Shown here: in pieces, positions 4,928 to 60,027 of the stretch
Layout of the letters: each line of letters begins with the position of its first letter
How positions within the stretch are numbered: the stretch's first letter is position 1
IMG/VR virus record: IMGVR_UViG_3300021560_000013
Span: 46,272 to 110,271 of that record
DNA: 64,000 nucleotides
Origin: a virus
Strand: one strand, 5' to 3'
Position numbers and translations under genes: made by a program
Notes under the pieces: generated by a model
What the model was told of the DNA's origin: nothing
Databases searched by the model: none
What the model saw: only the letters and a program-made list of their open reading frames with translations

Positions 4928-6186
4928 TGGCTGCCGTCAACCTCACCCCCAGCGCCGGTGCTGCCACCCAGGCGCTCGTGACGCTGTACGCGCCCGCGAA
5001 GGTGTTCTTCACCGCGAGCGCAGCTGCCGCCACGGCAGCGCTCGCCTCGCCGTCCACGCCGGTCACCGGCAACGGGCTGCCCCAGTCGATCGACCCGCTG
5101 GCGATCTTCTCCGACGTGAACACGCCCGACTTGGAGCCGCCGGATCTGCTGTCCGAGGTGCCGCCCTTCGAGCAGAACTCCTACGAGATCCAGGCGGTGC
5201 TCGGCGTTGTCGCGAACGAGCTAGCGCGGATCGAGGCGGCGCAGCAGGCGCTCGTGAACAACTTCTTCCCAGCGTCCGCCGACGCGCTGCTGCCGATCTT
5301 CGAGTCGCTGCTCGGCCTTCCGGTCGCCCCGCCGGGGCTCGACATCGGCACACGCCAGCAGATCGTGCTCGCGTACATGCAGCGGCTGAAGTCAGGCGGG
5401 CGCGGCCTGGACTGGATCAACGCGCTGAGCGCGCTGGCGGGCGTGAGCTTCACCTACCAGGAGCACCTCACCAACCCGATCACGAACCTCTGCACCAACG
5501 GCTCGTTCGAGCAGGACGTGGTCGGTGCCCTGCCCGCCGGGTGGAACACCGCCCCCGGCTACTGGATCAACACGGGCGCGACAGTCACCAAGCAGACGAC
5601 AGGCGGCGGCTATGTCGGCGCGAGCGCGATGCGGATCGTCACGCCCGGCGTCACCACACTGACCGGGGCGAAGTTTCCGATCAATGTGACCGCCGGTCAG
5701 CCGATGACGGTCAGCGCCGCGTTCAAGGGCGCTGCCGGGGGCGAGCAGATCCAGCTGGGCATCGGAGACGCGGTTGTCGGCTGGGCGTCAACCGCCGCCG
5801 TCACGCTGAGCACCGGCTGGCAGGTCTTGACCACCACGCTCACGCCGACGGCCAGCGGCTCGACCTTCGTCGGGATCCGACAGAACCAGGCGAGCTACCC
5901 GGCGGTCACGTTCTACGTGGACGCCGTGATGCTCGTCAACGGCTCCTCGGCCCCGGCCTACGCCGACGGCGATTCGCTCGGCTACCAGTGGTCCGGCGCG
6001 GCGGGGAACAGCACCAGCTTCCAGTCCTCGCCGCCCGCGAACACCGTCCTGGTCAAGATCCCGTCGGCGCTCGCCGGTGTCGGCTGGCCGTACATCCGCG
6101 ACATCACCCCGGCTCACATCGCGATCCAGCAGGGCTACACCGACGGGTTCTTCGTCGGCATCACGAACATCGGGAGCAACCTATGA
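4927..6186 (+). CDS. Baseplate protein (XkdU/YmfQ-like) with inserted CBM-like domain
   Basis: FFPASAD.LLPIFE.LLGLP at N-terminus, PAHI at C-terminus; follows baseplate J. Confidence 0.8.
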   Translation: MAAVNLTPSAGAATQALVTLYAPAKVFFTASAAAATAALASPSTPVTGNGLPQSIDPLAIFSDVNTPDLEPPDLLSEVPPFEQNSYEIQAVLGVVANELARIEAAQQALVNNFFPASADALLPIFESLLGLPVAPPGLDIGTRQQIVLAYMQRLKSGGRGLDWINALSALAGVSFTYQEHLTNPITNLCTNGSFEQDVVGALPAGWNTAPGYWINTGATVTKQTTGGGYVGASAMRIVTPGVTTLTGAKFPINVTAGQPMTVSAAFKGAAGGEQIQLGIGDAVVGWASTAAVTLSTGWQVLTTTLTPTASGSTFVGIRQNQASYPAVTFYVDAVMLVNGSSAPAYADGDSLGYQWSGAAGNSTSFQSSPPANTVLVKIPSALAGVGWPYIRDITPAHIAIQQGYTDGFFVGITNIGSNL

Positions 6187-7316
6187 GCAAGCACCGCCAG
6201 CTGGTCTACGGCGCGCCCATTCCCCAGGACTTCCTGGACGCGCTCCAGGAGTTCATCGGCATGGCCCACTCGGGCCTGCAGCTGTCCGTCGTCACGCCGG
6301 GCACCGCCAGCCAGCCCGCCAACCAGGTGCAGGTCGCTGCCGCGTCCGGCAACAGCCAGGTCGGCATCGCGATCAACGGACTGTGGCGCTACGTCGCCTC
6401 ACCGCCCGCGCCGATCTCGATCTCGGGCGCGCCCGGCACCTACGACATCTTCGCCTGCACCGGCAACAACAGCTTCAGCGTCAACGCGACGCCACCGCCG
6501 CCCGAGCTTGACGCGACCGACTACACGTTCACACTCCAGGCGCTCCCCCAGGGCAGCACGCCGACGAGCCCGCCGAACTACCGCAAGATCGGGGAGTGCG
6601 TGTTCGACGGCACGCGGATCCTGTACCTGCGCCAGACGCTCGGCGGCGGCGACAGCTACCGCCAGTTCCAGGCGGGCGACCTGAAGCTGTCCGCCGTCGC
6701 GAGCCCGCCGCCGGGCTGGCTGCTGTGCGACGGGACCGCGTACAGCCGGGCGACGTACGGCGTCCTCTACGCCGCCCTGGGAGGGTCAGCCTCGCCGCAC
6801 GGCCAGGGAGACGGCTCGACTACCTTCAACGTGCCGGACTACAAAGGCCGCGTTCCGATGGGCGTCGGCACCGCCGCCGGGGCAGCCGGGGCTACCAGCC
6901 ACACGCTCGGAGCCAAGGGCGGCGAGGAGACCCACGTACTGCAGAACGCCGAGATGCCCAGCCACAGCCACGGCGGCTTCGACGGCTACGCCTCGACCGA
7001 CCACTACCACTACGGCGGCACCAGCAACGACTCGCCCGACCATGCGCACAACCTGTCGCTCTCGGCCAACAACTCGCCCGTCACCCAGTCGGGCGGGCAG
7101 GGTTGCGCGACGATCGGCGGCGGGTCGAGCACCAGCGGCGCGACCGCCCGGCACTCGCACACGTTCACGACCTGGTGGCAGTCCCAGACGCGCAACAGCT
7201 ACGACGGCTCGGTCTCCGACCCGAACCACCGTCACGCGATCAGCGCCGACGGCGGCAGCGGCCCTCACAACACGCTGATGCCGTACACCACCTGCAACGT
7301 ATTCATCAAGTTCTAG
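6183..7316 (+). CDS. Tail fibre protein with phage tail-collar domain
   Basis: PPGWLLCDG...GDGSTTFNVPDYKGR, GGEETH.L...EMPSHSH, HNT.MPY; ATG overlaps upstream stop (ATGA), so the 5541 start is rejected. Confidence 0.9.
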   Translation: MSKHRQLVYGAPIPQDFLDALQEFIGMAHSGLQLSVVTPGTASQPANQVQVAAASGNSQVGIAINGLWRYVASPPAPISISGAPGTYDIFACTGNNSFSVNATPPPPELDATDYTFTLQALPQGSTPTSPPNYRKIGECVFDGTRILYLRQTLGGGDSYRQFQAGDLKLSAVASPPPGWLLCDGTAYSRATYGVLYAALGGSASPHGQGDGSTTFNVPDYKGRVPMGVGTAAGAAGATSHTLGAKGGEETHVLQNAEMPSHSHGGFDGYASTDHYHYGGTSNDSPDHAHNLSLSANNSPVTQSGGQGCATIGGGSSTSGATARHSHTFTTWWQSQTRNSYDGSVSDPNHRHAISADGGSGPHNTLMPYTTCNVFIKF

Positions 7317-7359
7317 CTCACGACGTAACACATGCTGCGCGCTCGTGTATCCTGTGAGC

Positions 7360-7441
7360 ACACGAGGACCCCGAACGCAACTCTCCTCGGTCGGGATTGA
7401 AACGTCCGGGCCTCTGAAACGGCTCCTACGGGAGCCGTTTC
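7360..7441 (+). ncRNA. Candidate antisense sRNA complementary to the shared RBS motif CCCGACCGAGGAG
   Basis: TATCCT -10 at 7348-7353; CTCTCCTCGGTCGGG at 7381-7395; ends in hairpin terminator. Confidence 0.55.
7416..7441. terminator. Likely bidirectional intrinsic terminator
   Basis: GAAACGGCTCC-TACG-GGAGCCGTTTC perfect 11-bp stem, UNCG loop, between convergent operons. Confidence 0.8.
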
Positions 7442-7490
7442 GCCTTCCAGGGCCAGGTACCGGGTGGGGGCTCGGAGGGGCGCAGCGGGC

Positions 7491-7802
7491 TCAGGCGGCG
7501 CTCTGGGGGGCCTTCTGGGGCCATAGCCCCGCCATCCGCTCGCGCGCCCCGGCGGTCGTCCAGATCGTCACACCGAATGACGGCGGCGAGCCGATCCGGC
7601 ACTCGCCTTCGAGCGTCAGCCACTCCAGGCGCGGCCTGCCGTCCCGGTCCTCCAGGTCCATCGGGTCAAGGCACCGGCGGCGCGTCTCCGGATCGCTGGA
7701 GCGGTAGTCGCCCGTCCGGTGGATGTCGAACGCCTCGACGGAGTGGAAGTGCCTGCCGCAGGCACTGCAATGGTTGGTGCAGGTGACGGTCTTAGCTGGC
7801 AA
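7491..7802 (-). CDS. FDxHR-type zinc-binding protein
   Basis: HCSACGRHF.S..AFDIHR...RCLDP. Confidence 0.7.
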   Translation of the reverse strand: MPAKTVTCTNHCSACGRHFHSVEAFDIHRTGDYRSSDPETRRRCLDPMDLEDRDGRPRLEWLTLEGECRIGSPPSFGVTIWTTAGARERMAGLWPQKAPQSAA

Positions 7803-8724
7803 CGGGCTCCTCGACCGCCTCGCCCTCGATCGGGATCGAGCCCCCGTTGCGCAGCACGAAGTCCGTTACCTCCTGCAGGATCTCCGTCCGCTTCGCCAGG
7901 TCCGCCCCGGCGAGCTTCAGCCGCACCTTCTGGGGTAGGAATGATCCGGGCCGGACACGGTTCGCCTCAGCGAACGCCACCTGCAGCTGTCGGGCAAGCT
8001 CGTCGTCCGGCCCCCAGTCAGGCTCCTGGTCGATCGGCGCGCCCAGGTCGATGATCCCGCCGAGCTTCTCGTCGTAGCGTGCGCCCACCTCGTCCTCGGG
8101 GATCAGCCCGGTGATCGAGAACTGCTTGCGGAGCACCATCGACTCGGCGCACTTCAGGATCATCGCGTCCGGGTACTTGCCCCAGGACTTCTTCATGTTC
8201 GGGCGGTTGTACTGGGCGAACTTCGCCAGGAAGAACGTCGGCACGCGCACGCCCCGGTAGCACATCGCCCACGCGCCGACGATGTTGCCCTTCAGCCGCT
8301 CCTCGGCGGCGATCTCGTCGTAGGTGTGGACGAACCCATCCTTGGTGCGGGCGATCTTGTCGGTGGCGTAGATCACGTCGCCGTTCATCCCGCCGAAGTC
8401 GTCGTAGCGGTTCGCGATCGCGAGCAGCCCGTCGCGCGAGACGATTGTCACCCACGTCGGCTCCTCGCCGTCGCGGCCCGGCATCTTCGCCAGGTACACC
8501 TGCCCGGCGAACGGGTCGAGCTTGTAGCGCCCCGTCAGTTCGAGGAACATCAGGAACGCGTTGTCGTCCGCGCCGCGAGCGACCGTCCGCTTCATCAGCG
8601 CCAGCTGCTCGTTGTCGAACGCGAACCGCGCCGGACGCGTCAGCGGCGTCGGCATCGCGCGGACGATCATGCCGGGGTTGTCGCCCGGCGGGGCCTCCGG
8701 GGGGGCTGTCTCGGTCTCAGCCAT
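7792..8724 (-). CDS. bet: Bet/RecT-family single-strand annealing recombinase
   Basis: FL......LDPF..QVY, IVSRDG...IA, GAWA..YR, W...P..MI.KCAE...LRK.F. Confidence 0.85.
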   Translation of the reverse strand: MAETETAPPEAPPGDNPGMIVRAMPTPLTRPARFAFDNEQLALMKRTVARGADDNAFLMFLELTGRYKLDPFAGQVYLAKMPGRDGEEPTWVTIVSRDGLLAIANRYDDFGGMNGDVIYATDKIARTKDGFVHTYDEIAAEERLKGNIVGAWAMCYRGVRVPTFFLAKFAQYNRPNMKKSWGKYPDAMILKCAESMVLRKQFSITGLIPEDEVGARYDEKLGGIIDLGAPIDQEPDWGPDDELARQLQVAFAEANRVRPGSFLPQKVRLKLAGADLAKRTEILQEVTDFVLRNGGSIPIEGEAVEEPVAS

Positions 8725-9937
8725 TGCCTGCCTTTCTCGCTTCCACCTGCGCCAGCGATGCCTCCAGCTGGCGCAGCAGTTCGTCGTCTACTTCCTCGGG
8801 CACGATCGGAGGCTTCGGGATGTGGATGTCGAACCGCGTCCCGATCTCCTCACGGTACAAGTCCTCGATCGACTCGCCCACCTGCAGGCCGCGCTCCAGC
8901 TGCTCCATCGTCGGGCGCGCCACCCGGCGCTGCACCCGATGGCCGTACACCCGGTTCGCCTTCGCGTCCTTCACCGGGATCGGACCGTGAACCGACGCCC
9001 ACGCCTTCGCCGCCTCCTTGTTCTGCTTGATCGCCTTCTCGGCCACCAGGATCTGAGCGACCACCTCCTCAGCCTCCTCCGCGTTGCGGATGCGGCCCCG
9101 ACGGCGCGCCGTAGGGAAGATCGGGCACGCCGTCGGGCGGGGGCAGTGGCCGCAGTGGTTACCCGGCGAGGGATGCCAGGTCTCCTCCTCGACCGAGCGG
9201 TCGAAGCGTTCGATCAGCGCCGACATCGTCAACTCGATCTCGTCCAGCTGATCGCGATACAAGGTCGCCTGTCGTGGCTGGGAGTAGCGGGGGTAGAACT
9301 CGCGCAGCGTGATCGACGTGAGCGGCGCGTGGTTCTTGAAGCCGAGCAGCGCGTAGGCCCGCTGCTGGAAGAAGCCCGACTCGGAGATCTCCGAGGGCGG
9401 CGGCAGCCACCAGCCGGTCTTCCAGTCGATCACGATCCCGTGCTCCAGGTTCTCGCCTTCCGCGAACAGCGCGTCCAGCTGGCCGGTGAACACCCGGTCC
9501 ACCTGCCCGCCGTACGGGTTCGGGTAGCGCACGACCGTGTCCAGCCGCTGCTCGATGTCCACCAGCCCGGCGATGTTCCACTGCGTCTCGGAGGCGAACT
9601 TCTTCGTCATCCACAGCAGATCGTGGATCTCGGACATCGGCACGTTCACCATGTCCGCGATCGGCACGTCCGCCTGGCGCAGCGTCTCCAGCATGATCGC
9701 GAGCGCTACGTCCACCTCGATGCGCTCCTCGCCGTGCGCGGCCATCTCCCGCAGCATCTTCGCTGCCGCCCGGTGCCAGATGATCCCCCGGCCCGACGCC
9801 GCGTCCGAGAACGTCTTGCGGTACCGGCGCTCGAACAGGCTCATCAGCCCGCACTCGTCGTAGTCCGACAGGGTGCTTTGCCGGACCCTCGGGAACTCCT
9901 CCAGCGCCTTCGGATACGGCGTCGCTGCTACCACCAC
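8717..9937 (-). CDS. PD-(D/E)XK exonuclease (RecB/Cas4-like, Cys cluster)
   Basis: G.LD...IDWKTG...Q..AY, C-terminal HCGHCP....CP; paired with Bet; CGACCGAGGAGG RBS. Confidence 0.8.
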   Translation of the reverse strand: MVVAATPYPKALEEFPRVRQSTLSDYDECGLMSLFERRYRKTFSDAASGRGIIWHRAAAKMLREMAAHGEERIEVDVALAIMLETLRQADVPIADMVNVPMSEIHDLLWMTKKFASETQWNIAGLVDIEQRLDTVVRYPNPYGGQVDRVFTGQLDALFAEGENLEHGIVIDWKTGWWLPPPSEISESGFFQQRAYALLGFKNHAPLTSITLREFYPRYSQPRQATLYRDQLDEIELTMSALIERFDRSVEEETWHPSPGNHCGHCPRPTACPIFPTARRRGRIRNAEEAEEVVAQILVAEKAIKQNKEAAKAWASVHGPIPVKDAKANRVYGHRVQRRVARPTMEQLERGLQVGESIEDLYREEIGTRFDIHIPKPPIVPEEVDDELLRQLEASLAQVEARKAGNG

Positions 9938-14239: not shown

Positions 14240-14942
14240 TACCCAGGGAGCCCCTTCGGGGGCTCCCGACCCTAACCCGGAGAAGCGGGTGACCTGGCAG
14301 CTTACCGAGGCCGGTGTTCACCCGTGGGAGGACGACGGCGTGATTGGCTGGGTGATCGTCCGGCTGAAGGCCGGGGCGACCGCGTACCAGATCCGCGCCG
14401 AGTCGGTGGACGGCGCGGAGGGCTGGCCCGAGCCCGGCGTGTACCTGGGCCAGAACGCTGCCGAGAAGGCGGTGGCTGTCGCCAAGGACCGCATCCGGCA
14501 CGAGCGCGGCGCGCCGACGATCAAGGCCCAGGCGAAGAAGCCGAAGGCGACCGAGGGCGGCAAGCGGGTGCGCCAGCTGCACGAGGCCAAGCGCGCCGGG
14601 CAGCGCGACGCCGAGGATGAGGTGTTCAAGATGCAGGTGGCGCTCGCGGAGACGATCAGTTTCCTGGAGCGGTTCGACCTGCCGGATCTCACCTGGTCCG
14701 AGGACGTGCAGGAGCACCTGAACGACATCGTCCACGACCTGGAGCGCTGCCGGGGCTGGAACGAGCGGGCGGTGGACACGGTGTGGGCGATGATGGATGA
14801 CGTGAGCCGCCAGCGGCGGATCCGCGATCTGCGCCGCCGCGCCGACGATCCAAGCTCGACCAGCTGGGAGCGCCGGAACGCTCGCGAGTTGTACGAGAAG
14901 CTGGAGCGGAAGTACCGCCAGCAGAAGAACCTCGGTGCTTAG
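14232..14942 (+). CDS. Hypothetical protein, helical C-terminus
   Basis: ATG overlapping the upstream gene end; coding-like. Confidence 0.7.
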   Translation: MSSTQGAPSGAPDPNPEKRVTWQLTEAGVHPWEDDGVIGWVIVRLKAGATAYQIRAESVDGAEGWPEPGVYLGQNAAEKAVAVAKDRIRHERGAPTIKAQAKKPKATEGGKRVRQLHEAKRAGQRDAEDEVFKMQVALAETISFLERFDLPDLTWSEDVQEHLNDIVHDLERCRGWNERAVDTVWAMMDDVSRQRRIRDLRRRADDPSSTSWERRNARELYEKLERKYRQQKNLGA

Positions 14943-15337
14943 GCGGCAGCGGCGGTGGCGGCAGCCTCGCGCTGCCGCTTACGCTCCGCTCGCTGCCACC
15001 GGCGGCGCTTGCGTCCTTCGACCTTCGCGCACAGCGGGCAGTGAGAGCCGCGCCGGAAGAACTTCGTGATTGCGGGCTGCTGCACCCCCAGCGACTCCCC
15101 GATCTCCCGGTCGCTGTAGCCCATGTCGCGAAGCTCGTGGACGGCGTGCCGGATCAGGTCGTCGTACGTGTCGCGCAACCCCCGGATCTGCTCCAGCGAA
15201 TACGTGTCCTCGTACCCGTCGGTGAAGCGCTCTCCTAAGCTCTCGTACGTCCGGGTGATCATGCCCATGAGTTCGGACACTTCGTCGGTCGGGAACGGCC
15301 TTCGCTCATTCCTCCAGGAATGACTCGAATCGCTCAT
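14939..15337 (-). CDS. HTH DNA-binding protein
   Basis: GYSDREIGESLGVQQPAITK HTH; RBS CCCGACCAAGGAG and own promoter. Confidence 0.7.
   Translation of the reverse strand: MSDSSHSWRNERRPFPTDEVSELMGMITRTYESLGERFTDGYEDTYSLEQIRGLRDTYDDLIRHAVHELRDMGYSDREIGESLGVQQPAITKFFRRGSHCPLCAKVEGRKRRRWQRAERKRQREAAATAAAA
15307..15322. promoter_or_regulatory. 16-bp palindrome CATTCC-N4-GGAATG (second operator family)
   Basis: CATTCCTCCAGGAATG; other copies at 25432, 53549, 58941. Confidence 0.55.
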
Positions 15338-17708: not shown

Positions 17709-17741
17709 GCTCACTCCTCGGTCGGGGGTTGCACTACAAGC

Positions 17742-19543: not shown

Positions 19544-19599
19544 CTCGTTCGTACCTCCTCGGTCGGGGAAGGCGGGGGGATCACCCCGCACACTGATGA

Positions 19600-19956: not shown

Positions 19957-19975
19957 TCGCGCACGACGTGTGCTA
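19957..19975 (+). promoter_or_regulatory. 19-bp palindrome/-10 promoter
   Basis: TCGCGCACGACGTGTGCTA, -10 TAAGCT. Confidence 0.75.
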
Positions 19976-20013
19976 AGCTGGCTGCCGATCAATCCAAGAC
20001 CGAGGAGGTCACG

Positions 20014-20870
20014 ATGACAACAGCAGCCCCGGTGCGGGCACCGGAACGCGACTGGACGAAGCATCGGTACGAGCTTGTCCCGATCGTGGACAACCAGCAC
20101 CGGTACCCGCACATCATCGTGGGCGATTACGTCCACACGAGCACCGGAGAGCATCGCGCGATCCTGCTCGCGGAAGCCCTGATGGGCGACCACGCGCAGA
20201 TCGAGCGCATGCACGTCTACCACAGCCACCCGTCGCCGGGTCCGATGCGCCGCTACGTCGGGCGCGTCCTCCGGGGCGAGTCGGTCATCCGGCGTCCGCT
20301 CTAGCACGCGTCGTGTGCTAAACTGGTCGGCGTATCCCCGACCGAAGGAGACGCGATGCACACTGGCTATGACGACCTGGTGTGGGTACCGAGCGGCCAC
20401 AACGACGGCTACTCGTACGCCACGGTCGTGCTTGGCAGGAACGACACAGCCTGGAACCCGGCGAGCACGAAGCACGTCATCTACGGCCCGGCCAAGGTGA
20501 CCTACGAGCGGAGCCCGGCCAGCATCACCGGCTACGTCGAATGACCACCCGCAAGGCGGCGCGCAGGAGGCGCGCCGCCAAGCCACGCCCGGCCAAGAAC
20601 CCGCGCGAGGAGGAGCGCGACGCCAAGAAGCAGGAGCGCCAGCTAGAGCGCGCTCGCGCGGCGGCTGCCGACAAGCGCGAGACCGAGGCCCGCACGAAGC
20701 TCGGCAACATCATCCGCGAGGAGATGCAGCTGCCCCGCTGGAAGCACTGCAAGTGCGGGATCACGCTGCGCACCACCCGCGCCGAGATCGACGCGATGGG
20801 TGCGGGCTGCACTGCCGGGCGCTGGGTTTGCCCGACCCTTGACGCGATCAGGCGCAAGCTCGAACGCTAA
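20014..20870 (+). other. Three small hypothetical genes (20014-20304, 20356-20544, 20541-20870)
   Basis: GACCGA(G/AG)GAG RBSs or coupling; two stop codons lie within palindromes. Confidence 0.65.
20302..20320 (+). promoter_or_regulatory. 19-bp palindrome/-10 promoter; first 3 nt are the upstream stop
   Basis: TAGCACGCGTCGTGTGCTA, -10 TAAACT. Confidence 0.8.
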
Positions 20871-25447: not shown

Positions 25448-25475
25448 GGTAAACCTTACGCACGCGCCCTTCCCA

Positions 25476-25494
25476 TAGCGCACGTCATGTGCTA
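25476..25494 (+). promoter_or_regulatory. 19-bp palindrome/-10 promoter
   Basis: TAGCGCACGTCATGTGCTA, -10 TATCCT; leader hairpin then CCCGACCGAGGAG. Confidence 0.8.
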
Positions 25495-26416
25495 TCCTCT
25501 AGGTGGAGGGTGGGAGGCTCCCGCCCTTGACTCCCGACCGAGGAGACACCATGCAGGCCACCACGCTGTATCTCGCGAATGGTCTCGTCAGGACCGTGAA
25601 GGGCCGCGCCGAGGATGTCGGCGCTGCGCTCAAGCGGCGGAAGCTGGGCGATGATGACCGGCTCCGTCAGTTCACCGACCTGAACGGCGAGACCGTCACC
25701 GTCAACGCCGACGCCGTGGCGCTCACCGAGGCCGCGAACGTCGCCGCGAAGGGGACCTTCGGCTTCAGCCGGGTCCTGGAGGAGGCAGCATGATCAAGGC
25801 GATCCGAGCAGAGATCCGCTACCGCGTCCAGCTGTTCTGGGCGGCGGTGGACATCGCATTCGAGTTCGTCGCGATGGAGTGGGCGGCGATCGCCGTCCGC
25901 TGAAAGGAGAGAGATGACCGCAGCGATCCTCACCACCCTCACCGGCGCGGGCTGGGCGCTCTACGCCTGGCTGCGCGGCAAGACCGGCACGCTTGAGCGC
26001 GAGGAGCTTCTCGTGGCGCTGATGATCGGGCGCGTCCGGTGAGCGCCCCGCCGGTCCGGCACGTCGCCACGATCTTCGGCGGCAAGATCCACTACGCATT
26101 CAACGACGCGGGCATCACGTTCTGTGGTGCCCGCGTCGGCATCTTCGATGTCCACCATCCCGACCTGGAGGTGGACTGCCGCAACTGCATCAAGGTCTTC
26201 GAGCACCGGCGCAAGCTCGCGCAGGCGCACGCGTGATCCGCCCGACGATCCACCGAGGCCGACGGCTGATGCTCGACGGGGCCACCGTCGGCTGGCTGGT
26301 CAAGCGCGATGGCATCTGGCGCGCATACCTGGTGCCCCGCCGGGGAATGCAGATCGTGATTGTGGCCGAGGGTCACACGCGCGAGGAGGCGACCGAAGCG
26401 GTCTGCCTACTCGCGG

Positions 26417-28049: not shown

Positions 28050-28592
28050 AACCCCGACCGAGGAGATCACATGCAGTTCGAGATCAACGACGCTCAGGCG
28101 CAGGCACTGATCGACGTGCTACGCGACCACGCTGACGGCGAGCCGGTCCTGTTCACCAAGCAGGGCAACGGCACCCTGACCGTCGCGTTCAACCTGGCGA
28201 CGATCGACATCGACACGGCGGGGATCGCGGAGGAGAACTGAGTGTTCGCCTACGAGACCGAGCCGTACGCGCGCTTCGCTGACGAAGGCCAGCCTCTCTT
28301 CTTCCGGCGGCGCTACGGGGGCAGCCCCGAGCCGCCGCAGGAGATCGGCGGCATGATGTTCGTGTCGCTCGCCCCCGCCGAGGCGATCTGGATCTACGGC
28401 TACTCGACGCAGTCCCGCTACGCCGAGGACCGCGCGCTAGACCCCGGCGTCTGGGCTACCCGCCGGGCGTTCTGGGGCTGGCACTACAGCGTCATGGAGC
28501 CGCGCGGTGAGCCGGGCTACATCGCCCTGGCCGACGTGACCGAAGAGATCACCCGCGAGGAGTTCGAGGCAGCAGCCGAACGCGGCTGGTCG

Positions 28593-28611
28593 TAGCGCAC
28601 GATGTGTGCTA
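28593..28611 (+). promoter_or_regulatory. 19-bp palindrome/-10 promoter (includes upstream stop)
   Basis: TAGCGCACGATGTGTGCTA, -10 TACACT. Confidence 0.85.
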
Positions 28612-30362
28612 CACTCTAGGTGGAGGGAATGAGCCCTCCGCTCCCGACCGAGGAGGACGACAGTGACGACCGAGGCACGACACATCCTCGACCCAGAGGG
28701 TGCCGACGCCGCGACGATGAATAGCTGGAGTGACCGTCACCCGGCCACCATCGTCAAGCGCACGGCCAAGACGATCTGGGTCCAGGAGGACCGCGTCGTG
28801 AACATGAGCAGCGAAGAGACCCGCGAGAGCGGTCTCGCCTTCGCTCAGGGTCACGGTGACGTGACTGTGTTCACCCGCGACTACGACGCGCCGATCCGCG
28901 AGTACCGGCTCCGCAAGAACGGGCGCTGGATGGCGAAGGGCGCGCCGATGAACAGCCGGGGCTCCAGCCTGAGCATCGGGCGGCGCTCCTACTACTACGA
29001 CCCACACTTCTGAGGAGGTGACGAGGATGGCAAGACGACAGATCATGGACGGCACTGGCTGTGTCGAAGGTCTGGAGACGTACGTCAACCGGATCACCGG
29101 CGAGCCGGGCCGGATCAAGGTGGCCGTCGAGGGCGGCGAGATCGTGGCAGTGCTCTGCTGCTGGTTCGCGGCCTGCGAGAACGAGGCCATCAGCACGGAG
29201 GCACATCCGATCCTCGGCCAGGTGCCGATCTGCGACCGGTGCGCCGAGAAGGTCGAGGCGATGACATGAGCGCCGAGACCAGGACTCCGGAGCGAGTCGC
29301 TGAGCACGCCCAGGAAGCGTTCTGGGCGGCGGTGGCCGAGAGCTACCCGGAGGTGACGACCGGCGACTTCCCGCCCGGCGATGACTTCCCGCTCGCGCTC
29401 GCGATGGAGCGCGCGATCGAAGCGTGGCTGATGTGGAACTGGCCCGAGGGCTCGAACCCGCCGGGTTGGAAGTGCCCGCGCTGCGGCGACGACAGGCGCG
29501 GCTGCGACCGCGACGAATGTCGAAGCATGTGACCAGATGATCTCGTTCAGTACCGCGACCGACGAGGAGCTTGTGGCGATGCGTGAGGCGATTGACGCGC
29601 TCACGCTCGCCCAGCCTGCGGCGATCCACGACGACCCCGCCTGGTGCGAGATCGTCCACGCGGTGATGGGCGAGGTTTACGCCAGGCAAGTCTGGCGGCA
29701 GATAGCAGCATGAACACCGACCGAGGAGACACGATGGACGAACCACGCATCACGATGAAGGACCGCAGCATCGTTGCGGACTACCTGATCAACACCGACA
29801 ACGAGGGCCGCAACGGCGCGGAGCGACGGCACTACGCCGCCGTCACCGTCGGCTACACGAAGGGCGGCATGAACTACTTCTCCGGGAAGTCGAACGCGCG
29901 GGGCTACTACGCGTCGATCAACCGGGAGACCGAGTCGAGCGACGGGATCTTCACGTCGCGCAGCTTCACGCTGTTCGCTGGGCTCGGGCTCATGCGCTCA
30001 GAGCCGGTGGGCCGGTTCTCGCAGAAGGGCCTGAACGCCTTCTTCGAGGAAGTGATGGAGGCGATGCCCGCGCTGCGCACCGACGAGCGTGTGGCGGCGT
30101 ACTTCGAGCCTGCGGAGGTGCCCGCATGACTCGCACGATGAAGCTGGCCCTGGAGGCCCTGATCGACGTGCAGCGCCGGGAGTCCTTCCGGCCCGAGGTG
30201 GCCGACCAGATCCCGGATGAGACGGTGCTCGGCGTCATGGTCGCCCGGTACCTGGGGGACGGCGCGGCGGTGCTGGAGGTGTGCGTCGGTGCGCTGACGG
30301 ACCTGAACTACCACGAGGACGCCGAGCGCGTCCGCGAGATCCTAGAGCGAGTCACCACGTAC

Positions 30363-30381: not shown

Positions 30382-30919
30382 CGACGTGATACAATGAAGG
30401 TGCGGGGGGAACACCCCCGCACTCCACCCGACCGAGGAGACACTGATGGAAACAGCCGAGACGTTCCGCCCCTGCGACGTGCAGCAGATGATCGCGCAGA
30501 TCGGGCGGATGAACATCATGGCGATCAGCGGCGGCAGGATCGAGCGCCGCGAGACCGGCATCACCCTGCCGGTCGGCGCTGGCTACAGCGTCACGATCGA
30601 CCTGGACTGGGACGACACCTACGTCGTCAGCCGCGTCTTCAAGCGCGGAGCCAAGCGCTGGATCAAGGGCACCCGGCGCAACATCTACTACGACGAGGTG
30701 GGCGAAGTGGCCTACAAGGCGTCGTGCTTCCGCAACGGACCGAGCTACTGGGATGAGTCAGCGGTCTGACATCAAGGCCGAGCAGTTTGGTGCCGATAGG
30801 GGCATCACCAAGACTGCGGACGGGGCCGGGGTGAGCCTGGGGGCGAGGCTCACCCCGCCGCAGATACCTACCGGCGAGCGTACGCGCTCGTCTACATCAC
30901 GAGAGAGAGGAGAGGGCCG

Positions 30920-54642: not shown

Positions 54643-54870
54643 TTCAAGATCCGGCTCGCCTGGCCGAGTACCAGGGTGGAGGGTGTTCCCTTCAGTCCCG
54701 ACCGAGGAGTCCCACATGAGGCAGGAAGCCGACAAGACGCAGGGCGCGCGGATCCCGACCGCCGCCCAGGCAATGGCGTTCGCGGTGATCAAGGACGCCG
54801 ATCGGCAGACGCCGATGGCGCTGGCGCTGGCGCAGTTCATCCTGGACGCCGCCGAGCAGTAGCCTTGAGT

Positions 54871-54889
54871 TAGCGCACGACGTGTGCTA
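54871..54889 (+). promoter_or_regulatory. 19-bp palindrome/-10 promoter (consensus copy)
   Basis: TAGCGCACGACGTGTGCTA, -10 TATGCT. Confidence 0.85.
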
Positions 54890-55928
54890 TGCTCTACGTG
54901 GAGGGCGGAAGCCTTCCGATTCCCGACCGAGAGGAGCCCGACGTGAGCACGCTGACCGCGCCGCCCCGTCCTGCCCCCAAGCCTGGTGGCAACCAGCCCA
55001 ACCCCCACACCTGGAACGGAGCGTGGGGCTGATGGAGAGCTACCAGAGACCTGACGCGACCGGCATCCGCTGGGGGCTCGCGTTCCGCTGCTACCGAGGC
55101 GGCGAAGCCGTCGATCGCGGCTACGGCATGCCCTGGACCGTCGAGCGCTGGAACGGCGAGGACTGGGAGTTCATCGCACGAGCGGCGAGCTACCAGCGCT
55201 GCCGCGAGATCCCCGACGAGTGGCGCAAGGGCCAGCACCGCCGGATCAAGCGGACCACCGAGGAGGACTCGGCTCGCGCGCTGAACGCGCTGAGAGGACG
55301 ACTGTGACCGAGAAGAAGACCATCCGAGAACGCATGAACGCCCCTGAGGCGCAGCGCGAGCAGATGCTGCACAACGCGGCTCTGAAGCGCCACTACGCGC
55401 CAGGCACGCGCGTGCGCCGCTTGAAGACCGGGCGCGAGGGCGTGATCACCTGGTACGGGCGCGACAAGAAGCGCCGCGTGCTGGGACAGGGCCTGCCCCG
55501 AATCGGCGTGCGCTGGGACGGCAACACCGGCGTGAACTTCATGGGCACCGCCGGGATCGTCCGCTGCGACGGGCTGCACCTGGACGACACGAAGGCCCGG
55601 CGCACCACGCCGAGCCGCCGGTTCAAGGTGCTGAGCACGGTCGGCATGCCGCCGAGCGCGCTGACCAACGATCGCGGCACCGGCCTGTTCTACGGCCAGC
55701 GCACACTGGGCGACCAAGACCTGACCGCCGACGAGTTCGCCTGGCTGGGCGAGATCGCGCGTGAGCACAACGCCGGGGCGCTCGTCGTGGAGGTGACGCC
55801 CGGCTCGATTGGCGAGTTCGACTCGCGCGGCCAGACCGAGGCGTGGGACTGGGCGCGCTACCTGGTGGGCCGCTACGACCGCGATGGCGATCGCCCGCGA
55901 GGGATCGTGTTCATCGACCTGGACAACA

Positions 55929-55947
55929 AGACGCACGTCGTGCGCTA
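55929..55947 (+). promoter_or_regulatory. 19-bp palindrome/-10 promoter
   Basis: AGACGCACGTCGTGCGCTA, -10 TAAGCT, then CCCGACCGAGGAGG. Confidence 0.75.
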
Positions 55948-57746
55948 AGCTGAAGACCCGACCGAGGAGGAAACGCATGACCACCCTAAGCAGACGCGTT
56001 GGCGAGACGACGCGCCTGAGCACCTGGCCGATCTACGCAGTCGTGGCGATCTCGAAGGCCGACGGCTTCAAGCGGCTGAAGCGGGGCGCGCCCGAATGCG
56101 CCAGCTACGACGCGTGCGCCGAGTACGTCGAGCGCAACGAGTCCGACGACAACCCGGAGCGCTACGAGATCTGGGAGGTGGAGGCGTGACGCGCGAAGAG
56201 ATGGACGCGAGGGCTCGCGAGATCGAGACCGAGCTTGACAACGAGGCCCACGCGGGCTGGGCGTCATACCCGGCTGAGCTTGACGTGGACTACAACCGGG
56301 CTCGCCTGCGCGTGCTGCTGGCCGACGGCACCGTCCGGCTGTTCCAGCTGGACGACGTGGAGACGTTCGCCTGCCCCGAGTGCGGCACCGCGATGGTCCG
56401 CTCGCCGTCCGACCGGGACTTCCTGATGCACGTCGAGTCCACCGACTGCGCGCCTGAGCCCTGGCCGACACCCGAGGAGGCGAGGTGACCCGCGAGCGCC
56501 GGTGCAGCTGCGAGCCGTACGAGCTTTGCGAGTGCTTCGAGGCGTTCGACTACAACCGTCCGCCCGAGGGCTACTACGTCGGCCAGACCTACATCTCGGC
56601 TGCCGAGATCGACGGCGGCGAGCAGACCGGCATCTACCTGGACGCGTACGGAAGACAACACGAGCGCCCGCAGAACGCGGGCTGGTGAGGAGAAGACGCA
56701 TGAGGACGGTTCACCTGGTGCCGCGCATCGAGCGCAGAGACGGCACCTACAAGAGCAACGAGGGCGCGACGTTCGCGGTCGTGGACGGCGAGGGCCGAGA
56801 CCTGTTCGCCGTGTACGTGATCCCCGCCAACCGGGCGCAGGACACGCACATCTCGATCGGCGCGCAGCTGGTGGATCCGCACTACGCGGACCTGTTCGCG
56901 CAGGCGCTGGCAGAGGCCGGTGCCGAGGCCGCGATCATGGACGGGAGGGCCGGATGATCTACACCGCGACGATCACGCCCGGCGAGGCGCTGCCGGACGG
57001 CACGCTCGACCCGCTGTACTGGGCGTCGCTGGACGGCGACACCTACCTGCCCGTCTCGCGTCCGGCGCAGCCCGGCGATGAGGAGACGATCGCTCAGCTG
57101 TTCGAGGGCGACGGCAACTTCAAGCCGCTGGTGTGGGGCGAGCGCGGGATTCACTTCGCCGCCCTGCAGGTCAAGGGCGATGTCGAGTTCTCGGAGGTGG
57201 GCGATGCCTGACCCGGAGCGGGCCGACGATGTGCGCTGGCACTCGGTGCTGGGGATCCTCCGCAACCTGATGAAGGAGATCGGCCACGACCCGGACGACC
57301 TGATCATGCCGGTTGATCTGCCGATGTACGCGGAGGAGATCGACGCGCTTTACCGGCCCGAGTTGAACCGGCTGCGCGCATGAGCGACCTGGCGCAGATC
57401 CTGAGCACGATCGTGGCCGTGGTGATCGGCTACGCGTTCGGCGTGTACCACACCCGCCGGGCGATGCGCGATGCGCTCGCGCAGCTGAAGCGGGAGGGGA
57501 AGCTGTGACGAAGCATGGCTGCCGGTGCGGCAAGCGCGACTGCTGGCGGATCGTGACCTACCGGGGCAACTACTCGGCGTTCAACGGCTACCGGTTCGAC
57601 CCGAGTGACTACTCGGAGATCCAGTGCAAGGCGGCGCTCGGCGGCTGCGGAGCGCGCTGGCGCACCAAAGCGAAGTACGTCGAGGAGATCCGCGCACGCG
57701 AGCGGTCAGAACGCTGACGGTTGCATAGCAACACGAGCTTCACAGA

Positions 57747-59763: not shown

Positions 59764-59805
59764 CGGGCGCGGCTCCGGACACCCTTGCACTCGCGCCCTG
59801 CCCGG

Positions 59806-60027
59806 CTAGGACTCCGGGTCGAAGATGACCGTGAACGGTCGGCCCTGCGTGAACTGCTGCGCCGCCACGTCGTTGCGGACGGTCATGCGGATCATGCCCG
59901 CCGGGGTCGCTTCCGCCCATTCGGCGTTGCGGCCTTGCGCGTAGTCCGGCGTTAGCTCGATCTCGTGCGCCCACTCCATGTCGTTGACGCGTGAGACCTT
60001 GAACTTCGCGGTGATCGCCATGCTCAC
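59806..60027 (-). CDS. Conserved small phage protein
   Basis: AKFKV..N..W..ATP.G.I.M.V.N..A..QF; AAAGGAGG RBS. Confidence 0.65.
   Translation of the reverse strand: MSMAITAKFKVSRVNDMEWAHEIELTPDYAQGRNAEWAEATPAGMIRMTVRNDVAAQQFTQGRPFTVIFDPES

Follow-up and report, generated by a model that had tools for sequence, protein, structure and literature searches.

Why does a phage that places a 13-nt sequence just ahead of the start codons of many of its genes also keep one exact copy of that sequence where no gene begins? This orphan copy (minus strand, 7383-7395) is the only one of 13 exact copies without a gene. It lies in the window, a 64,000-nt stretch of DNA that corresponds to bases 46272-110271 of the 110,271-base IMG/VR virus record IMGVR_UViG_3300021560_000013 (G+C content 68%), and positions given below are those of the window unless the genome is named. 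The initial annotation of this DNA had proposed that the orphan copy belongs to an antisense RNA directed against a ribosome-binding site that the tagged genes share.

The layout of this uncultured phage was taken from a GC3-based ORF map and from family scans (Pfam and PHROGs). The plus strand carries a long structural block (32 kb, genome 21.7-53.6 kb) whose last gene encodes the tail fibre and ends with a TAG stop codon at 7314-7316, and a minus-strand RecE/RecT operon converges on it from the right, beyond which mainly small non-structural genes are found. The orphan copy is located where the tail-fibre gene and this operon converge (Table 1). The 103-aa protein encoded at the 3' end of the operon contains a zinc-binding domain of the phage FDXHR type and also matches a dsRNA-binding zinc finger, though below threshold (E = 0.006). 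Its gene was considered as a dedicated partner of the element at the junction and rejected, because in three related loci (L009-L011) the RecT match and the tag are only about 120 nt apart, which leaves no room for such a gene there, and the two are probably unrelated. Searches by DNA and by RecT protein found no close cultured relative of the phage, and no prophage copies were found in the bacterial genomes searched.

Table 1. Features of the window discussed in the text, with their positions, strands and supporting evidence.
Feature	Position	Strand	Evidence or remark
-10-like box TATCCT (TANNNT)	7348..7353	+	conserved in relatives, hexamers as in the phage cassettes; putative function
Predicted small RNA of ~85 nt, or 3' end of the late-operon transcript	7360..7446	+	predicted from box, hairpins and tail
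Long hairpin, 5' arm GAGG-ac-CCCG-a-ACG	7364..7377	+	folds; arms complementary across clades
Anti-tag CTCCTCGGTCGGG	7383..7395	+	exact complement of the 13-nt tag; minus strand reads as the tag
Long hairpin, 3' arm ACG-t-CCGGG-CCTC	7402..7414	+	folds; anchored pair table
Hairpin 1, probable plus-strand intrinsic terminator	7416..7441	+	perfect 11 bp, cUACGg tetraloop, base GAAACGG/CCGTTTC
Gene-linked tag, exact	17714..17726	-	ATG 5 nt downstream, 83-aa gene
Gene-linked tag, exact	19555..19567	-	ATG 11 nt downstream, 219-aa gene
Gene-linked tag, exact	25533..25545	+	after operator-promoter cassette and leader hairpin, 80-aa gene
Gene-linked tag, exact	28053..28065	+	56-aa gene
Gene-linked tag, exact	28643..28655	+	after operator-promoter cassette, 116-aa gene
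Gene-linked tag, exact	30427..30439	+	107-aa gene
Gene-linked tag, exact	54697..54709	+	48-aa gene
Gene-linked tag, exact	55957..55969	+	5 nt past cassette -10 box, 70-aa gene
Tail fibre with tail-collar domain, last late gene	5541..7316	+	Pfam Collar, E = 8.6e-15; PHROGs tail-fibre families
Convergent operon (exonuclease, RecT, zinc-binding protein)	7491..9937	-	family scans
PD-(D/E)XK exonuclease	9937-8717	-	family scans
RecT	8724-7792	-	family scans
103-aa zinc-binding protein, 3' end of RecE/RecT operon	7802-7491	-	family scans

The tag, CCCGACCGAGGAG, contains the Shine-Dalgarno core GGAG and has 13 exact copies in the 110-kb genome, nine of them in the window, while the reversed pattern, searched as a control over the whole genome, has no exact copy. 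When up to two mismatches are allowed, 29 matches are obtained against 7.2 ± 2.8 in shuffled sequences. The other copies had been described as lying in sense orientation just before a start codon, and this is the pattern that we observe: 12 of the 13 exact copies are found 5-11 nt 5' of an ATG or GTG, on the strand of the sizeable ORF that begins there, and the near-exact copies mostly keep the same distance from the start codon of a same-strand ORF. Ordinary gene-linked copies are also found on the minus strand (at 17714, 19555, 15345, 9946 and 60678). The tagged set comprises about 20 non-structural genes that belong to at least 12 separate transcription units on both strands, and no tag occurs anywhere in the structural block. 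A Pfam scan of 10 tagged genes gave no match, and for the 15 tagged genes scanned the PHROGs matches were to families of unknown function, with the exception of one weak helix-turn-helix (HTH) match. The distance from tag to start codon is fixed and that from promoter to tag varies between 5 and 35 nt, so the tag looks like a signal that acts at the level of RNA, in translation.

Many tag copies stand in the order operator-promoter cassette, often a leader hairpin, tag and start codon. The cassette (GCGCACG-N3-5-GTGC TAnnnT) is a palindromic operator that overlaps the -10 box; there are about 25 copies genome-wide, most of them with a tag downstream within the distance just given (examples of cassettes in the window are 25472-25498, 28589-28615, 54867-54893, 55925-55951 and 20298-20324). 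Cassettes often stand back to back for divergent genes, as in the pair in the region of 19975-19979, and the TAG stop codon of the upstream gene often lies inside the operator. The leader hairpin, a GC-rich GGAGGG-N4-6-CCCTCC between the -10 box and the tag, is present in many tagged leaders (25499-25532, 28616-28642 and 54894-54921, for example) and absent in others. Behind the shortest cassettes (window 55946; genome 2078 and 12738) the tag must be at or adjoining the 5' end of the mRNA, as for the tag of the 70-aa gene, which lies at or near the 5' end because its -10 box is so close. The weak HTH match (PHROG 3855, E = 8e-4) belongs to a 132-aa protein (14939-15337, minus strand) whose own gene sits behind a cassette and a near-exact tag, and which is a candidate for the regulator that binds the operator.

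At the orphan copy, the order along the plus strand is a TANNNT box, a long hairpin topped by the complement of the tag (the anti-tag), and hairpin 1 with a T-rich tail. The predicted fold of this segment, from the putative RNA start to the tail, has an energy of -38.3 kcal/mol. The initial annotation had seen the TATCCT box, which is indeed present, and had described flanks that pair and leave the motif in a loop. The flanks do pair, as the two arms of the long hairpin, but the seed is partly paired as well: four anti-tag bases are engaged within the structure (UCCU with GGGA) and a 5-nt apex (CGGUC) is free, so that there is no open loop. As to whether the seed is sequestered, opening the whole anti-tag costs +5.9 kcal/mol, and RNAalifold prefers an alternative pairing of GUCGGG with CUCGAC of the 3' arm, and this competition implies that access to the anti-tag may be regulated or limited. 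The terminator reported 20 nt downstream corresponds to hairpin 1, which begins at that distance past the anti-tag and is a perfect 11-bp stem, but a simple consensus scan detected no promoter or terminator here, and in the window itself the 10 nt after hairpin 1 include only 2 T. No conserved -35 element precedes the TANNNT box. Rfam assigned no family to the element, the only match being Fibrobacter-1 with 14.1 bits against a gathering score of 77.9 (E = 3.3).

To what extent this arrangement is conserved can be seen in 16 related elements, ten of which were found without using the motif. RecT homology led to seven loci (71-79% protein identity), each with the exact 13-mer 3' of RecT and with the arrangement unchanged; L036, L062, L086, L137 and L139 came from pattern scans, and L250-L252 from tail-fibre homology. 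Relatives that keep the tag and lack the antisense copy would, according to the initial annotation, have spoken against an antisense RNA; the exact copy is kept in all 16, and all share one identical tag. Among the same phages the tag of the exonuclease gene varies by 0-2 mismatches. A RecT profile search intended to reach more distant relatives with another tag yielded only the seven loci already known, and a pattern search that did not require the motif returned known elements only.

The arms of the long hairpin have diverged between clades to 56-64% identity, yet they always pair. When arms were swapped between clades, the chimeras had a mean energy of -13.6 kcal/mol (sd 4.8) compared with -21.3 kcal/mol for native arm pairs, and in an anchored pair table many stem positions are occupied by several Watson-Crick pair types. 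Arm-swap energies and the anchored table were used in place of a single consensus alignment, since MAFFT put the arms out of register and RNAalifold then gave only hairpin 1 and the alternative short pairing. The gap had been called non-coding, and this is borne out by the relatives, in which ORFs over the motif range from 0 to 75 aa, are absent in several and are conserved in none. The exact motif, the arms that diverge in a complementary manner and the lack of a conserved ORF together indicate that the element has been maintained by selection as a structured, non-coding unit and does not represent a degenerate ribosome-binding site. As a separate observation, the 3' arm of a group of elements (L012-L014, L137, L015, L139, L250-L252 and L062) keeps GCTCG(G/A)C, which repeats CUCGG of the anti-tag, and the 5' arm of the same elements resembles the CCGAG part of the tag; the long hairpin may thus hold an internal mimic of its own target.

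Which strand carries the functional RNA is less straightforward. The orphan copy had been described as reversed, which is correct with respect to the tail operon, but it has the same orientation as the minus-strand genes immediately to its right. In 15 of the 16 elements a box (TATCCT, TATGCT or TAAGCT) is found 26-35 nt ahead of the anti-tag, and L086 has a box further off. These hexamers are identical to -10 hexamers of the phage's own cassettes, the bases that follow, CTCTA(A/G)G, resemble the CTCTAGG of the cassettes, and in L250 half of the operator is retained ahead of the box. Actinobacterial promoters often show only TANNNT. Past hairpin 1, the relatives have a T-rich tail on the plus strand and not on the minus strand, with 3.25 T in 10 nt compared with 0.75 (Wilcoxon p = 0.0008; the counts for L250-L252 are approximate because the hairpin ends were overshot). 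Hairpin 1 has UNCG tetraloops on the plus strand in the window (UACG) and in L013 (UUCG), and in five relatives it is more stable on that strand. A tail-fibre-like gene ending in ..IKT* stops 9-60 nt 5' of the element in 8 of the 16, including the three that were found through that gene, and 199-477 nt upstream in four more, and the scan found none in the remaining elements. Given the position of this gene, the anti-tag would usually be in the 3' end of a late transcript even without a promoter of its own. In L013 (1773-1830 region), a separate GC hairpin, CAGGGGC..GCCCCTG, stands just 5' of the -10-like box, an order that would fit a terminator of the preceding gene followed by an independent small-RNA promoter. 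Box, T-tail, loops and position thus all point to the plus strand, and it is from these sequence features that we infer transcription, its strand and its start site.

The folding data are of a different kind. When the fold was constrained to the long hairpin, its energy on the opposite (RecT) strand equalled or beat that on the plus strand in 10 of 13 elements, with the plus strand better in the other three, and the counts of G-U pairs are similar on both strands and favour neither. Folding energy and G-U pairs do not decide the functional strand. The original idea of an antisense RNA against a shared ribosome-binding site gains from the conserved structured element and from a layout like that of a small-RNA gene, but not from the stem itself, which folds equally well or better on the opposite strand. 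This leads to the reading that the functional RNA is the minus strand, in the 3' region of the RecE/RecT transcript, where the hairpin would present a true copy of the tag and might act as a decoy or landing site for the factor that reads the tag, whether 30S subunits or a protein of the phage, or might stabilise the 3' end. The motif does have the orientation of the adjoining operon, the greater stability on the RecT strand in those 10 of 13 elements favours this strand, and a purine-rich extension follows the tag there (GGAGUGAGGG, GGAGAAGGG). Read on the minus strand, hairpin 1 comes ahead of the tag and would terminate many transcripts; it lacks a U-tail in that direction and so may leak. 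The minus-strand reading also does not account for the conserved -10-like box or for the T-tail on the plus strand, and the stem of clade B (L012, L014 and L137) and of L086 needs G-U pairs that are available on the plus strand only. Moreover, in L250-L252 the left-hand tail fibre is kept while the right neighbour does not look like RecT (by visual inspection of the L251 and L252 sequences only). We consider a minus-strand RNA unlikely.

If the RNA is read from the plus strand, what could it do? The anti-tag and the tag are complementary at 13 of 13 nt, with a 13-bp duplex of -27.5 kcal/mol, and the 15-nt identity noted between this locus and 25532-25546 was confirmed. Opening the exact targets costs +2.8 to +6.5 kcal/mol. 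Folding and cofolding against the tagged leaders had been suggested as a check, and the cofold gain is -9 to -32 kcal/mol. The duplex would end 5-11 nt before the start codon with GGAG covered. We propose that the -10 box starts an RNA of about 85 nt at about position 7360, or alternatively that the late tail-operon transcript runs into the element, and that either RNA would end at the conserved hairpin 1. Such an RNA would display the long irregular hairpin (7364-7414), with the exact complement of the phage-private tag at its top, and by pairing with the tags the anti-tag would cover the Shine-Dalgarno GGAG and lower the translation of the whole tagged set. Because the late operon has the element at its end, pairing would plausibly occur when the late genes are on. 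The reading that we favour, and to which we give an even chance of being right, is that an RNA from the plus strand, be it a small RNA or the 3' end of the late-operon transcript, base-pairs with the tagged leaders and reduces translation from them; repression by pairing is what we infer from complementarity and from the site of the duplex.

The same anatomy is equally expected if the plus-strand RNA pairs with the tags and the outcome is something other than repression, be it opening or stabilising of the leader (activation), cleavage by RNase III, or protection of the late mRNA 3' end in cis. Many leaders carry the GGAGGG..CCCTCC hairpin just 5' of the tag, and this could be remodelled upon pairing, but these hairpins leave GGAG unsequestered. 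The 13-bp duplex, by contrast, covers GGAG and ends close to the start codon, and in known cases of small RNAs that occlude the ribosome-binding site, a duplex over the Shine-Dalgarno sequence blocks 30S binding. We therefore regard a non-repressive outcome as improbable.

Somewhat more doubtful still is that the pair of hairpins is a two-way terminator between convergent operons in which the tag is kept as a DNA-level site, for protein binding or recombination. The element is located at a convergent junction, its stems fold on both strands, and the motif has small symmetric ends (TCC...GGA). A two-way terminator, however, needs no exact 13-mer on its top, and this 13-mer is kept in 16 of 16 elements while the arms change; a DNA-level site is at odds with gene-linked tags that are fixed to the start codon and variable with respect to the promoter, as expected of an RNA-level signal. 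Finally, it is very improbable that the orphan copy is what remains of the ribosome-binding site of a minus-strand gene now lost or very small, since the nearest minus-strand start, the TTG that had been noted and that opens a 20-aa frame, is 2 nt past GGAG where real tagged genes have 5-11 nt, no ORF (including the 191-aa antisense ORF that begins 21 nt away) is conserved in the relatives, and a relic would not remain exact in 16 diverged phages. Both frames were rejected as coding, the 20-aa frame for its spacing and lack of conservation, and the 191-aa ORF because it overlaps the tail-fibre gene and has no family matches.

The closest known counterpart of the tag is the start-associated sequence (SAS, and its extended form ESAS) of Cluster K mycobacteriophages (Pope 2011, PMC3203893), whose role was still called unknown in 2024 and 2025 (PMC11373665, PMC12699233). 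Both are private, asymmetric 13-nt motifs with a Shine-Dalgarno core, present in 11-19 copies per genome in Cluster K and in 13 exact copies here, and in both the copies are confined to non-structural genes, whose start codons they precede by a few nt. Some SAS copies lie behind an inverted-repeat promoter element, as many tags lie behind the cassettes in our phage. The two differ in sequence, the Cluster K consensus GGGATAGGAGCCC being unrelated to CCCGACCGAGGAG, and the phage lineages are unrelated too; the tag system is an analogue, and not a member, of the Cluster K SAS.

The likeness extends to the orphan copy. K1 phages have a single reversed SAS that is not at a gene start, and K2 and K3 phages have no reversed copy (PMC3203893). 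In Adephagia, late transcription is reported to start in exactly the gap that holds the reversed SAS (PMC11373665). We computed that in K1 phages, as in our phage, the reversed copy tops a conserved hairpin on the transcribed strand. In Anaya the reversed SAS lies in the 385-nt gap between gp96 and gp97, where the plus strand folds into a long hairpin (-78.5 kcal/mol, z -3.99) with CCUCCUAUCC as its apical loop. This gap region is conserved in 145 K phages; the TAGACT upstream of it is invariant, compensatory changes occur, and G-U pairs specific to the transcribed strand are numerous. The K gaps, which separate the last genes of the right arm (Anaya L167:39768-39905, which is 59767-59904 of the record, and L207-L214), contain the TAGACT, a palindrome GCACAnCTGTGC and two covarying hairpins, the second of which shows the reversed SAS in its loop in K1; some Cluster K genome records annotate a hypothetical protein across the gap. 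The K1 hairpin lies in the leader where late transcription starts, whereas ours is at the end of the late operon. Furthermore, in several Cluster K phages the loop has ceased to match the SAS or the reversed copy is missing: Amgine has kept the SAS and its loop has diverged to only a partial match, the loop of Amohnition shows no better pairing than shuffled sequences do, and in SirPhilip the tag is kept and the loop's match to the reversed SAS is gone. The persistence of the Cluster K tag without a matching loop or reversed copy implies that such tags need no anti-tag, and the parallel with Cluster K1 is a partial one.

Among phage antisense RNAs, those of P1/P7 (c4), P22 (sar) and P4 (CI) act at ribosome-binding sites. 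Like the RNA proposed here, they are short structured phage RNAs whose exposed bases control phage genes by pairing with repeated targets. Theirs are one or two sites in one operon, often reached by the processed transcript of the operon itself, whereas here, in contrast to c4 and CI, about 20 targets share a tag and are dispersed over the 12 or more transcription units. The protein RegA of T4 is a translational repressor that recognises a loose AU-rich site. The logic that we propose is the same in that one phage factor shuts off many early messages at their start regions, but RegA is a protein, whereas we propose an RNA that is exactly complementary to its targets over 13 nt. Among host RNAs, the actinobacterial 6C and B11 have C/U-rich loops that pair with Shine-Dalgarno sequences (PMC10470900). 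These and the staphylococcal RNAIII and Rsa RNAs resemble our element in presenting a pyrimidine-rich top (CUCCUC) to GGAG-type Shine-Dalgarno sequences of many targets. They differ from it in being host RNAs with short generic seeds, while the seed of our element reaches 8 nt past the Shine-Dalgarno sequence and is private to the phage.

These comparisons suggest, tentatively and with the chances somewhat against it, that private tags together with a single anti-tag RNA on the late transcript form a recurrent post-transcriptional off-switch for non-structural genes, an RNA counterpart of T4 RegA that evolved independently in unrelated lineages and that would explain the K1 SAS, whose reversed copy tops a hairpin in the late leader. 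A conserved RNA that mirrors the tag is a concrete and testable partner for the SAS, which was described in 2011, and a single regulator that could address a whole gene set would be a simple strategy for a phage. If true, a regulon-wide antisense switch would be new to phage biology and would offer a compact design for synthetic control. The similar layout in Cluster K1 mycobacteriophages, which can be cultured and engineered, means that the idea can be tested at the bench.
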